A stretch of 36,469 nt of DNA from a virus. Lineage: Duplodnaviria; Heunggongvirae; Uroviricota; Caudoviricetes. Both the position numbers and the translations under genes were made by a program. Shown one piece after another: positions 10,148 through 19,669 of this stretch; the first letter of the stretch is position 1, and every line of letters starts with the position of its first letter. The notes under the pieces are model-generated. The model saw only the letters and a program-made list of their open reading frames with translations. It was not told where the DNA came from and made no database searches. Location: the IMG/VR virus record IMGVR_UViG_2724679138_000003; one strand, written 5' to 3'.

Positions 10148-10891
10148 TTAACCTGCGGCGCTGACAGCCACCGCAGCCACTGCCACAAAATCGCCGTCAG
10201 AAGTCATGCCCACAATGCTGACACTGCCCTGCTTCACGCCTTTCACCGTGGCCACAAGCCCGTTCAGGGTCACCGTGGCAGTCTGTGGATCTGTCGAATG
10301 CACACTGATCGCTTTGTCACTGGCTCCGTCAGGTTTTACTGTAAAGGTCAGCGTGGTGGTTGCTCCCACTTTTACACTGGCAGATGCCGGTGCCACCGTC
10401 AGCCCGGTAACGCTCACTGTTTCAGTGCCTTCCTCTGCCAGATACGGACGCCCCACACCGCTGATTTTCACTGTGCGGGTCATCACGTCTTTTGAGGCAA
10501 TGGTTTTACCCAGTGAGCTCAGCCAGCCACGGAAAACATCAACAGTGCCGTTGGGATATTTGATACGAAACGCGCAGACTTCACCGGAGTCGAACAACTG
10601 AACCAGTTTTTTCTGCCCGCTGTCACCCGGACGCCAGGCCAGCGTCGCCGAAGTATCACCGACGGATTTCTGCCCCTGGGTTGTCGTTTTCCAGTCTGCA
10701 TCTTCATCATCGAGATAAGTGTCATCTTCTGCATCAGCGGTCATTTCGCCAGGTTGCAGATCCTTCACCATCGCAAGACGCAGCCAGTCAGTGTCCGATA
10801 AAGGGTTCGCAAACGCATCGCCCTTGCCGGTGTACATCCAGAACGTCGTTCCCGCACCTTTCGTTTTTGCCAGTGGATTTGGTGTGGTCAT
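10148..10891 (-). CDS. V: Major tail protein V with C-terminal Ig-like domain
   Basis: ATG 10891 preceded by AGGAGG. MTTPNPLAKTKGAGTTFWMYTGKGDAFANPLSD... resembles lambda V as recalled; C-terminal TVxP/Ig-like repeats. Confidence 0.88.
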   Translation of the reverse strand: MTTPNPLAKTKGAGTTFWMYTGKGDAFANPLSDTDWLRLAMVKDLQPGEMTADAEDDTYLDDEDADWKTTTQGQKSVGDTSATLAWRPGDSGQKKLVQLFDSGEVCAFRIKYPNGTVDVFRGWLSSLGKTIASKDVMTRTVKISGVGRPYLAEEGTETVSVTGLTVAPASASVKVGATTTLTFTVKPDGASDKAISVHSTDPQTATVTLNGLVATVKGVKQGSVSIVGMTSDGDFVAVAAVAVSAAG

Positions 10892-16049: not shown

Positions 16050-16261
16050 CAGAACCTCGCCAGCCGGTACCCGGGATGCCCCCGTCGTCGTGTAATCAGA
16101 GCCGCAAGGCGGCGCTCCCACTCCTGCCGTCCCTGCCGGATCTCAGATAAGTTTTCCATGGTCATCTGCTGACCATTAAAGGTGACGGATTTTCCGTCCA
16201 GCACCGCCATTTCAGCTTCCGTATAACGCTGAATCATGGCTTCGATATCATTCTGGTTCAT
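16049..16261 (-). CDS. W: Head-tail joining protein W
   Basis: About 70 aa, MNQNDIEAMIQRYTEAEMAVLDGKSVTFNGQQMTM...; GGAGG 6 nt upstream of ATG 16261; lambda gpW-like position and size. Confidence 0.75.
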   Translation of the reverse strand: MNQNDIEAMIQRYTEAEMAVLDGKSVTFNGQQMTMENLSEIRQGRQEWERRLAALITRRRGHPGYRLARF

Positions 16262-18360
16262 AACCATCCTCCGGAAGTCAGCCAGGGGTTAACATCGTCA
16301 GTTACTGTTTTCTTCCGTTTTTGTTTTTTAACAGGCGTGGATACCGGTTCCGGTGTGGGTGACGGTTCGGTACTGTCCGGGACACACTCCAGCCAGGTTT
16401 CCCGGCTCGCCCACTCCGGTGCATCCGGCCAGCGGATCTTTTCGTATCCATGCAGAATGACCAGAGCCTCGGCATACACCATCAGGTCAAAAGCTTCGTT
16501 GGCACCGCGACCCGGCTTACTCCATTTCCCGTCACTGCTCCGCTCTTCATACGTCAGTTCGTCGTAAAACCAGCTCCCCAGCCAGTCAGGGAAATGCACA
16601 TAGCCTGGACCTGGCGAGTCACGCCATAACGCGTTATTCACCCGGTCTTTCAGGGCATCCGTCTGAAGAAGCCAGAGCGGCACATCACCTGCGGCCTGCG
16701 CCCGGCGGCCCGTTCGTCCGGTGTTATCAGGGAATGTACGGCTGATCAGTTTTGCGCGCCGGATGCTGTCACCCTTAAACAGGTAAATACGTTTACCAAG
16801 GCCATCACGACGGCAACGACGCCAGAATTTATAGGCATTATCAGTGACCCCGTCTTCACCGCCGGAGTCCACCGCCATTGCCATCAGTCGCATTTGTTGA
16901 GAAGGATCGGAGGCCAGCGGCCAGCTTTTATGAAAAACATCCGTCAGCAGGACATCCCAGTCTTCCGGATAGCTGGCCGGATCAATTCGCTGGCTCTCCC
17001 CGTCGCTGTCACCGCGCAATGACTGCGTGATGTTGTAACGATCAATAATCCAGCGTTCGCCACGGCTGCCATAGCCCGTTACCTGAACCACAAAACGGCG
17101 ATGACGTCCCGCCTGCACATCCACTGTCGCCACAAGGAAATTAACGCCATCCGGCACACTGCGGGAAGGAACTGGCTCTGCCCGCTGCTCAAGCAGTTCA
17201 CTTTTTCGTTGCTCCATGCTGGCGCGGGGAAGATAAGGTAATCCCCAGTCGGTATTGATAACCGTCTTGAGTGTTTCTTCACTTCCGGTTGTCTCGTATT
17301 CCTGTTCTGCAGTAAGCAGTTTGTAAACGAGTTGCGAGAGTGTCTGATAAGCAGCTGCCGGACCCTCCATCCAGAATGACGCAATACGTGAACGCCGGGG
17401 ATCACCATAACGACTGCCATCTGCATTGATGGATTCACCATCCCGTAACCAGACCCCACGTCCGTTCAGCTCGCGTTTTTGTTCAGGCAAAATCCGTCCT
17501 GAACAGGAAGGACACTGAATATAAGCCGCCTCACTTGCCAGCACAGGATCGGCAATATCACGGAAACCAGCAACCACATCGCCGCAGGGCTGAAAATACT
17601 CACCACAGTGTGGACAGGGCCAGTACCAGCGACGGCGATCGCCACGGTTATAGAGCGACAGGATCCCCGTGGTTGGTGGAGCCTCATGCGGTGAAGTCCG
17701 TCGCCATTTCACATCCTTCACATCCCTGCCGGGGGAACTCTCCACCAGCGTCATACCACTGGACATAAATGTGGTGGTACGTTTTGAGGCAAGAGAGAAG
17801 GCATCCCCCTCACCATCAATATCTTCCGGAAAACGGTCATAATCCGTCAGCGCCACGCATTTATAATCTGATGAAGACATGATATTGACTGACGGCCAGC
17901 CGATTTTCAGGTAGTTGCCAGCAAGGAATGTTCTGTCATAAACGTTGTTGTCATTTTTGTTCGGACTCAGGCGACTGACCACTTCCGGGCTGACGCGAAA
18001 CGTTCTGGCGAGTCGTTTTTTGGAGTGTTCGCGGGCTTTTTCCTCCGTCATCTGAATGATCAGCATATCAGCAGGATCGCAAATCACGTTGTAAATCACC
18101 CAGCCGTCAATCAGGCCGATAGTCTTGCCGGTTCGTGCCGGGCCAACAAATATCACTGCGTCGTATTCACGCGAGGCCAGGCAGTTCATAGGCTCAATAA
18201 CATACGGTGCCACCAGCGGATCCCACGGGACTGAGTTCCCTGCCCCCATAGGCACCCGCATATACTGAGCAACGGCATCAGCAACCCGCATTCGTCTCGG
18301 TGCGCGAAGGATATAACCTGAATCGGTTCGTGCTGCCTTTGCGGTTTCCTGATTCAGCAT
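16258..18360 (-). CDS. Terminase large subunit (lambda gpA family)
   Basis: 700 aa; Walker A-like VGPARTGKT; CPHCGE motif as in lambda A (recalled); AGGAGG upstream; start overlaps the small-subunit stop (TAATG). Confidence 0.88.
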   Translation of the reverse strand: MLNQETAKAARTDSGYILRAPRRMRVADAVAQYMRVPMGAGNSVPWDPLVAPYVIEPMNCLASREYDAVIFVGPARTGKTIGLIDGWVIYNVICDPADMLIIQMTEEKAREHSKKRLARTFRVSPEVVSRLSPNKNDNNVYDRTFLAGNYLKIGWPSVNIMSSSDYKCVALTDYDRFPEDIDGEGDAFSLASKRTTTFMSSGMTLVESSPGRDVKDVKWRRTSPHEAPPTTGILSLYNRGDRRRWYWPCPHCGEYFQPCGDVVAGFRDIADPVLASEAAYIQCPSCSGRILPEQKRELNGRGVWLRDGESINADGSRYGDPRRSRIASFWMEGPAAAYQTLSQLVYKLLTAEQEYETTGSEETLKTVINTDWGLPYLPRASMEQRKSELLEQRAEPVPSRSVPDGVNFLVATVDVQAGRHRRFVVQVTGYGSRGERWIIDRYNITQSLRGDSDGESQRIDPASYPEDWDVLLTDVFHKSWPLASDPSQQMRLMAMAVDSGGEDGVTDNAYKFWRRCRRDGLGKRIYLFKGDSIRRAKLISRTFPDNTGRTGRRAQAAGDVPLWLLQTDALKDRVNNALWRDSPGPGYVHFPDWLGSWFYDELTYEERSSDGKWSKPGRGANEAFDLMVYAEALVILHGYEKIRWPDAPEWASRETWLECVPDSTEPSPTPEPVSTPVKKQKRKKTVTDDVNPWLTSGGWL

Positions 18361-18854
18361 TACTCCTCCTGCTGTAATTCCTCCTCATCATCCGCACCTG
18401 CTTCAGTCACCCGCAGGGCTATCTGATCGCGCAGATCATCAATAATGGACTGAACACGGCTCACAGCGGCAGGCTGCAGACCGCAGTCACGTTCAAGAAT
18501 ATCCGGTAATGTCTCCAGCACCTGCACGACCGCTTTTGCCCAGATGGCAAACTCCCGTCTGACATCACTGGCCGGAATGAGTTGTGCCGTTTCCTGTTCG
18601 AACTTAAGACGCTCACGTTCAGACTGATACCAGGCTTTGCGCTCATGCGCGTCCATTTCGCCTTCTGCAACCGGCGGTGGTAATGCCAGAAATGCCGACA
18701 CAATATCAACCACCCGATAAAGCTTGAGGTTGCTTTCATGCCCCCCTGCAACGGGTAGATTTTGCAGCCTTGCCGCAGCAGTCTGGCGATGTACACCTGA
18801 CAATGCCGCCAGTTGACTGATATTCAGCGTCAGATTTTTTAACTCTCGATCCAT
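18360..18854 (-). CDS. Terminase small subunit (Nu1-like, N-terminal HTH)
   Basis: 164 aa, MDRELKNLTLNISQLAALSGVHRQTAAARL... (HTH), acidic C-terminus; directly upstream of terminase large subunit and downstream of cos-like region. Confidence 0.8.
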   Translation of the reverse strand: MDRELKNLTLNISQLAALSGVHRQTAAARLQNLPVAGGHESNLKLYRVVDIVSAFLALPPPVAEGEMDAHERKAWYQSERERLKFEQETAQLIPASDVRREFAIWAKAVVQVLETLPDILERDCGLQPAAVSRVQSIIDDLRDQIALRVTEAGADDEEELQQEE

Positions 18855-18989
18855 ACCCGCTCCAGAATGTTTTAAACATGCATCTTGCGAACAACTTTAG
18901 GCAAACGGTGTTAGTGATGAACAAAAAACAATCAGAATCGACACCATAAAAATAAAACCACTGTAATATCAATCAATTACAGTGGTGGT

Positions 18990-19060
18990 GATGACGAATA
19001 AAATTTCAAAAACTAGCCTTTTTCCGCGCCGCTCCCGCCCCGTGGCAGGCCACCCCACCG
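18990..19060. other. Candidate cos site (cosN/cosB)
   Basis: Minus-strand ACGGGGCGGGAGCGGCGCGG followed by an AT-rich tract (AAAAAGGCTAGTTTTTGAAATTTTATT), about 180 nt upstream of the Nu1-like start. Resembles the lambda left-end arrangement (GGGCGGCGACCT...TTTATGAAAATTTT) as recalled. Confidence 0.4.
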
Positions 19061-19669
19061 GGAGGACCCGTCAGCCTGACAGCCATGACGAACGTCTGAT
19101 ACAGCACCCTGCATGAATGGCATCGGGATAATCCAGAAAGGAATAGCATCGTACCCACAAGAATCTGTGTGAGTGTCCTGTTTCTTCCACCCCCGCACAG
19201 GACTGGCGAGCATGAGGGACAAACCCGCGAATCATTAGCGCGGTAAAAACCCGGTGTGCATCGTTTTTGATTATTCCCGCACACTCTCGCAGAAGGAGTT
19301 CCCCGTCGGGCTACGGTCTCTGTTAATACGGGAATACGGCGACGATACAGCGCATGATGTGTCAGGCTTGAATACCTTTATCCGTTAAAAGGGATATCAG
19401 TTAAGTTATCCCGTGTAGGGTATAAACCATTATCAAAGCCACTCTGTAGGGAGTGGCTTTTGTAATGACAATAAAAAGCCCCGCGAATACGAGGCTAAAT
19501 CCTGGTATTTGTAATGACTGGCTCTTATCTCAACGCAGCCCCTTACCGCGCGCAAGATGCTCAATATCAAGCATCAGCAATGAGATATTTAATCTGCATT
19601 CACTCCAGAAGTGATCACCACCCTGTCTACAGAGCCAGATGTGAAGGATGATGAGTAAAATTATCGCTA

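Follow-up and report, generated by a model that had tools for sequence, protein, structure and literature searches.

A probable lambda-like cos site with a predicted right-half variant of the lambda cohesive end in an E. coli prophage of the mEp460/cdtI group

The minus strand of positions 18913 to 19069 in the window (that is, the whole 36,469-nucleotide stretch of viral DNA analysed here) is very probably where an E. coli lambdoid prophage, one of the mEp460/cdtI group, has its cos site, lambda-like in its working and with GGGCGGGAGCGG as its predicted 5′ cohesive end. We consider this the best explanation because the core matches lambda base for base, a composite lambda-frame pattern recovers it, it lies where cos lies in lambda, the large terminase subunit (TerL) belongs to the gpA family, the records of several relatives are split at homologous positions, and the downstream repeats are laid out in the manner of cosB. 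As far as sequence can tell, cosQ, the CG flanks of the nicks, the order of elements in cosB and the location are all those of a lambda-like cos. The features of the region are listed below, with + positions counted from the first base of the predicted overhang (19040).

19063 to 19069, minus strand: cosQ equivalent GGGTCCT, an exact match to the 7-bp cosQ of lambda

19041 to 19062, minus strand: spacer between cosQ and cosN with a conserved CCGGTG and the ...CCACG left flank of the nick, from the 18-phage alignment and the pairwise alignment with lambda

19029 to 19040, minus strand: predicted 12-nt 5′ cohesive end GGGCGGGAGCGG, from the base-for-base alignment with GGGCGGCGACCT of lambda

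19008 to 19028, minus strand: conserved right flank CGCGGAAAAAGGCTAGTTTTT (right half-site of cosN and the cosN-to-cosB spacer), from the alignment

18984 to 18997, minus strand: R3-like repeat TCGTCATCACCACC, with its core TCATCACC at 18987 to 18994 (+47, direct), a putative binding site of the small terminase subunit (TerS)

18967 to 18979, minus strand: IHF-consensus core TAATTGATTGATA (reverse complement of WATCAANNNNTTR) at +62, followed by an A/T tract; an exact consensus match and the putative equivalent of I1

18957 to 18986, minus strand: perfect 11-bp inverted repeat ACCACTGTAAT-N8-ATTACAGTGGT that encloses the IHF core and is followed by a run of T

18938 to 18945, minus strand: putative R2-like repeat, inverted, GGTGTCGA (TCGACACC on the other strand), at +96

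18913 to 18920, minus strand: putative R1-like repeat, direct, TCATCACT, at +121

18360 to 18854, minus strand: TerS, 164 aa, DUF1441, with an N-terminal helix-turn-helix-like segment (Pfam PF07278, E = 2.7e-41)

16258 to 18360, minus strand: TerL, 700 aa, gpA family (ATPase and endonuclease), from Pfam

The site is placed between the lysis genes upstream and the terminase genes downstream, which is its position in lambda. A preliminary description had pointed to a GC-rich block followed by an AT-rich tract on the minus strand, about 180 nt upstream of the small terminase gene and in a layout parallel to the left end of lambda, and in these respects it is borne out. The 20-mer ACGGGGCGGGAGCGGCGCGG at 19024-19043 (minus strand) occurs once in the window and is followed by an AT-rich tract; the strand around the block reads ...GACGGGTCCTCCCGGTGGGGTGGCCTGCCACGGGGCGGGAGCGGCGCGGAAAAAGGCTAGTTTTTGAAATTTTATTCGTCATCACC... 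and, at greater length, ...CTGACGGGTCCTCCCGGTGGGGTGGCCTGCCACGGGGCGGGAGCGGCGCGGAAAAAGGCTAGTTTTTGAAATTTTATTCGTCATCACCACC.... The ATG of TerS (18854) lies 186 nt past the first G of GGGCGGGAGCGG and 170 nt past the end of the GC block, compared with 190 nt from the first overhang base to the start of TerS in lambda, and the parallel in layout extends to cosQ, the frame of ACG, 12-mer and CG, the right flank and the position in the gene order. The interval originally proposed, 18990-19060, takes in cosN, its conserved flank on the right and the first of the repeats; on the present reading the complete cos would cover roughly 18913-19069 on the minus strand.

For the pairwise comparison the right and left ends of lambda were joined and the core was then aligned, a long global alignment having drifted in the AT-rich parts. 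The aligned core reads ACGGGTCCTTTCCGGTGATCCGACAGGTTACG/GGGCGGCGACCT/CGCGGGTTTTCGCTATTTATGAAAATTT in lambda and ACGGGTCCT-CCCGGTGGGGTGGCCTGCCACG/GGGCGGGAGCGG/CGCGGAAAAAGGCTAGTTTTTGAAATTTT in the window (slashes stand for the nicks, which are predicted ones in the window). Common to both are GGGTCCT and CCGGTG, then ACG on the left of the first nick, GGGCGG, and CGCGG on the right of the second nick; the alignment with lambda cos suggested in the preliminary description as a check brings an exact cosQ, CCGGTG, ACG/GGGCGG and /CGCGG into register. At the position of the right flank lambda has CGCGGGTTTTCGCTATTTATG and the window CGCGGAAAAAGGCTAGTTTTT. When 18 cos regions were aligned, lambda among them, CGCGG was found to be invariant in all 18 sequences and GGCT.GTTTTT nearly invariant, while cosQ is invariant or nearly so in 14 of the 18 phages. 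In lambda, cosQ is the signal at which packaging terminates. It is highly conserved among lambda-like phages (PMC4669245). From cosQ to the predicted N1 nick there are 22 nt in the window as against 23 nt in lambda, and the spacing between cosQ and GGTG is 1 base shorter than that of lambda. The composite lambda-frame pattern GGGTCCT-N3-4-GGTG-N12-ACGGGGCGG-N6-CGCGG, built solely from elements shared with lambda, has a single match in the window and none in 100 dinucleotide-preserving shuffles, and the resemblance therefore exceeds chance; given lambda's own spacing, the pattern has no match in the window.

By homology with lambda, the N1 nick is predicted on the minus strand between 19041 and 19040 and the N2 nick on the opposite strand between 19029 and 19028. 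The frame is then ...CCACG/GGGCGGGAGCGG/CGCGG..., in which CG dinucleotides flank both predicted nicks, and it can be set beside lambda as ACG/GGGCGGGAGCGG/CGCGG against ACG/GGGCGGCGACCT/CGCGG. The two 12-mers are identical at 7 of 12 positions: positions 1-6 (GGGCGG) are the same, and the differences fall at 7, 8, 9, 11 and 12. The cohesive end had been described beforehand as a different, non-lambda one, which holds for the right half with its five differences and fails for the left half, which is that of lambda. The 20-nt block of the preliminary description also has to be trimmed, as its central 12 nt would be the overhang while ACG and CGCGG are conserved flanks.

Variation of this type has been documented. 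In lambda-like cosN, positions 7-12 vary while cosQ, the left half and the nick-flanking CG are conserved; N15 and phiD326 differ from lambda at positions 9 and 12, and Gifsy-1 at 8, 9 and 11, and changes in the right half are tolerated by lambda TerL (PMC4669245). The window has five differences from lambda where these phages have two to three, and it follows the same rule of varying at positions 7-12 only. Where the 12-nt frame of a relative is clear, the 12-mers fall into seven distinct sequences, with positions 1-3 invariant, 4-6 nearly so and 7-12 freely variable. The 12-nt spacing from ACG/ to /CGCGG is found in 13 of the 18 aligned sequences, among which are lambda and all of the closest relatives except mEp460_4F5. 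The predicted end departs from that of lambda in its right half and stays within the variation on record for lambda-like phages; right-half variation of the sticky end is an ordinary, already recognised kind. The two-fold symmetry of cosN amounts to 8 of 16 bp (10 of 16 in lambda) or 12 of 22 (10 of 22 in lambda) and is unremarkable, given that 3.6% of random 22-mers from the window reach 12. Searching the full-text literature with the 12-mer, with its reverse complement and with the form found in cdtI brought up nothing but papers on G-quadruplexes, primers and other unrelated subjects. Reading the block as a G-quadruplex was also considered and was rejected on inspection of the sequence, in which only three G3+ runs lie within normal loop lengths.

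The ends of deposited records agree with the predicted nicks in several relatives. Those of cdtI (AB285204/NC_009514) and Tritos (OV696610) begin at the base homologous to 19040, with GGGCGGGAGCGT-CGCGGAAAAAGGCTAGTTTTT, and end in ...GGGTCCT.CCGGTGGGG...CTGCCACG, that is, at ...CCACG. Their 12-mer, GGGCGGGAGCGT, is identical to GGGCGGGAGCGG at 11 of 12 positions and has T at position 12 where the window has G, and the cosN block and right flank of cdtI are together identical to the window at 32 of 33 positions. The record of Hafnia phage yong2 begins with CGCGGG and ends with its own 12-mer, which means that it was opened at the homologous N2; a literature search found no paper dedicated to yong2 or Tritos. 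In the record of LLS, bases 1-12 (GGGCGGCGCGCT) are annotated as a 5′-extended cohesive site, an end that its authors inferred from the TerL type and from a putative cos in mEp213; the nanopore reads of LLS virions had no coverage of the ends around cos (PMC12315714). This putative LLS/mEp213 cos has the frame of cosQ and cosN in common with the window, as well as the right flank and the positions of the three repeats, and the TerS proteins are of the same family as the window's at 57-58% identity. The differences are in the 12-mer's right half and in R1, which overlaps the start of TerS in LLS and mEp213 because these lack about 70 nt that the window has.

The closest isolated phages are mEp460 and Ayreon, whose TerS is 99-100% identical to that of the window. 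The 12-mer of mEp460 is identical to GGGCGGGAGCGG, and its cosQ, flank and repeats are identical or nearly so. Both records are opened at the TerS gene and leave cos unannotated; the authors of the Ayreon genome did not locate it and just expected it somewhere upstream (PMC5764929). The core GGGCGGGAGCGK-CGCGGAAAAAGGCTAG is carried by at least 120 IMG/VR contigs, mostly prophages, and among the core-bearing contigs sampled position 12 is G, the form seen in the window, in about 19 and T in the rest. Among the IMG/VR matches listed, almost all are prophages in isolate genomes, and none starts at the cos site.

A few records depart from the common arrangement. That of mEp460_4F5 (LR595868) is opened 5 nt to the left of the predicted nick and has a cosN shorter by 3 nt (ACG-GGGCGGGAG-CGCGG). 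This 9-nt form has no other occurrence among 2.9 million IMG/VR viral contigs, compared with at least 120 for the 12-nt form, and it is probably either an artefact of assembling the end or a private mutation; a real variant with a 9-nt overhang, as reported for Cr-LKS3, is possible. In CP-1639 and VT1-Sakai the distance from cosQ to CGCGG is kept (41-42 nt), while the left frame's ACG has moved by 1-2 nt inside a run of GGGCGGGCGG(G), which makes the nick frame ambiguous; these two may be impaired for cos cleavage. The contig IMGVR_UViG_2574179916_000005 (11,983 bp) contains two complete modules of cosQ, cosN, cosB and TerS start, at 91-123 and 10762-10794 and thus 10.67 kb apart, one in the ...GCGT form and the other in the ...GCGG form. 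Its first module is followed by a TerS ORF and by a 331-aa ORF, possibly a truncated TerL. The two modules may belong to prophages, in tandem or as remnants, or else to a prophage with a cos-bearing satellite beside it.

The terminase genes next to the site encode a pair of mixed resemblance to that of lambda. TerL matches GpA_ATPase (PF05876, E = 1.6e-71) and GpA_nuclease (PF20454, E = 1.1e-85) in Pfam and shares 25% identity with lambda gpA across 623 aa (E = 3e-19). TerS shows 100% identity to the protein annotated as TerS in 569R4, phi458 and Ayreon, and its helix-turn-helix-like motif QLAA..G.HRQT...R is nearly invariant among close types. By BLASTP it has no detectable similarity to lambda Nu1 (best E = 20), DUF1441 is its sole Pfam match, and a sequence search of the PDB gave no relevant match, that is, no solved relative by sequence. 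At the level of sequence, the pair thus has the gpA-family large subunit of a lambda-type terminase and not a Nu1-homologous small one. The relation to cdtI is uneven: its TerL is 88% identical to that of the window whereas its TerS is just 42% identical, and its cosB, with a different set of repeats (GGCGGCGGCA...), is unrelated to that of the window. This amounts to a natural swap, in which TerL and the cosN block are alike and TerS and cosB differ, and it supports a division of labour. Aligned with the TerL of cdtI (733-2832), the window's TerL is a mosaic in which the C-terminal ~320 aa are almost identical and the N-terminal part has diverged far more. The pattern suggests a recombination joint within TerL, by which the part that interacts with TerS stays with its TerS and cosB.

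Downstream of cosN, we infer a lambda-style cosB of three octamers (direct, inverted, direct) around an IHF consensus; the repeat motif was defined after seeing the three sites in the window, which inflates the statistic for its local enrichment. In lambda-like phages, the order of cosB is R3-I1-R2-R1 with R2 inverted, and R3 of lambda is at bp 50-65 (PMC9026076). The window agrees with lambda in the order R3, IHF, inverted R2 and R1 and in having R3 near +50 and R2 near +100. It differs in that its repeats are unrelated to the 16-bp R sequences of lambda and in the distance from R2 to R1, about 25 nt where lambda has about 52. The layout recurs among relatives: those with a close DUF1441 TerS type all have a direct octamer at +44 to +52 and another at +119 to +124, and most of them have an inverted octamer at +95 to +99, so the three positions and orientations are found again in phages whose TerS is from ~48 to 100% identical to that of the window. 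The octamers are TCATCACC, TCGACACC and TCATCACT in the window group, TCATCATC, TCGACATC and TCACCATC in LLS, mEp213 and yong2, and TCATCATC three times in Fels-1; their seventh base co-varies across the three sites, with CAC in the window group and CAT in the LLS group. In Gifsy-2 the equivalents of R2 and R1 form a perfect 12-bp inverted repeat (TTCAGTGTCGAA and TTCGACACTGAA). The putative IHF core sits between the R3-like and R2-like repeats, and a consensus is present at +62 to +64 in 9 of the 18 aligned phages, with the TTGAT columns largely conserved; taken alone, the consensus occurs at chance frequency (2 matches in the window against 1.5 expected). It may be that DUF1441 TerS proteins use a lambda-style tripartite cosB (R3-IHF-inverted R2-R1) whose repeat unit of 8 bp is TC(R)(W)CA(Y)(Y) and whose specificity varies by group (CAC vs CAT), and we see the chances for and against this as evenly balanced.

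The perfect inverted repeat around the IHF core calls for a comment. A terminator scan flags 18957-18986 as a coding-strand hairpin of 11 pairs, with a loop of 8 nt and a T-rich tail, and it could accordingly be an intrinsic terminator before TerS, instead of or besides an IHF site. We find this doubtful. Just 4 of the 11 pairs are G-C, a terminator right before the packaging genes would be unexpected unless late transcription is antiterminated, and it is an IHF site that lambda-like cosB has at the position of the hairpin (PMC9026076). The stem is moreover disrupted in the close relatives 569R4 and mEp460, in which the embedded IHF core TTGATA is kept, so that the inverted repeat is probably incidental to the IHF site.

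From this layout a lambda-like course of events can be proposed, in which the binding of TerS and IHF, the nick positions and the overhang length are all deduced. TerS (DUF1441) would bind the R3-like (+47, direct), R2-like (+96, inverted) and R1-like (+121, direct) repeats, and IHF would bend the DNA at the consensus site between the first two. The resulting complex would anchor a pair of gpA-type TerL subunits on cosN, which is partly symmetric, and these would nick the two strands 12 bp apart in ACG/GGGCGGGAGCGG/CG and leave 5′ overhangs of GGGCGGGAGCGG. From there, packaging would move in the direction of falling window coordinates, toward the terminase and head genes, until the next cos brings it to a stop, a step for which the exact cosQ GGGTCCT would be required.

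Three other readings of the site have to be weighed against this one. The site may be a real cos at which the cuts are shorter, longer or shifted relative to the lambda-homologous pair, so that the end is not exactly GGGCGGGAGCGG. Cr-LKS3, a distant relative with a homologous TerS, is reported to carry lambda-type flanks around a 5′ end of 9 nt (PMC9303873), the spacing between the left and right conserved frames is 9-11 nt in mEp460_4F5, CP-1639 and VT1-Sakai, and TerL has an identity to lambda gpA of only 25%. Such a shift is nevertheless unlikely, in view of the 12-nt frame in 13 of the 18 aligned sequences, of the cdtI, Tritos and yong2 records, which are split exactly at the lambda-homologous positions, and of the isolated occurrence of the 9-nt mEp460_4F5 form when searched for in IMG/VR. 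It is also conceivable that the sequence descends from a cos site and is no longer used, the prophage being defective. Many E. coli lambdoid prophages are defective, and the window is a chromosomal prophage, 99.9% identical to that of E. coli EC93. We regard such a relic as very improbable, since every sub-element of cos is intact, the 12-mer and its flanks are identical to those of the plaque-forming mEp460, TerS is 100% identical to that of Ayreon and phi458, and 19 kb of head and tail genes are made up of long intact ORFs, collinear and 96-98% identical with the isolated phages PhiR55_1, 569R4, Ayreon and mEp460.

The remaining reading takes the GC-rich block as part of a protein-coding gene, since a 92-aa ORF (19006-19284, minus strand) spans it and ORFs over the block, among them gp59 of mEp460 and others in 569R4 and PhiR47_1, are annotated as 'hypothetical protein'. 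The product of the 92-aa ORF has no Pfam match, however, and similarity to phi458, cdtI and LLS breaks off immediately upstream of cosQ, so that what is conserved is the non-coding motifs and not the ORF. With relatives' records opened inside this ORF and the conserved elements matching a well-defined cis-acting site, we find a coding role for the block scarcely credible. A lambda-like cos with the predicted end GGGCGGGAGCGG is the reading that we retain.

The DNA around the site is that of an E. coli prophage. The identity of 99.9% to the EC93 prophage extends over 4 kb, and the RefSeq annotation of that identical region places holin, endolysin and Rz-type lysis genes upstream of cos. A terminator-like hairpin (AGCCTCGTATTCGCGGGGCT followed by a run of T, 19477-19496, minus strand) is seen downstream of the lysis genes and ~400 nt before cosQ, and LLS and Chris1 have similar GC hairpins with T-runs shortly upstream of cosQ. 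Closer to the site, a segment of ~225 nt upstream of cos (19175-19400, minus strand) recurs, at 87-96% identity, as unannotated DNA in many Stx-converting and lambda-like phages that otherwise differ in their packaging modules; it has the look of a mosaic segment shared by many phages, placed between the lysis genes and cos.

The site leaves the current understanding of packaging unchanged. Its use is that, if read correctly, it fixes the true ends and the orientation of a widespread E. coli prophage family, of which published genomes such as mEp460 and Ayreon have been opened arbitrarily. It also predicts which sticky ends would be compatible, this one being mismatched to lambda at five bases and to the cdtI type at one; a cohesive-end mismatch of two bases has been found to cost about four-fold in yield (PMC4669245). 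For cosmid, transduction and satellite-hijacking studies it would offer a defined target with a non-Nu1 small terminase. If DUF1441 TerS does use a tripartite cosB of the lambda style, the architecture of cos would be a conserved scaffold on which recognition subunits, unrelated or very divergent, are swapped as modules along with their sites, and these phages would be a natural panel for reading the code by which TerS recognizes DNA.
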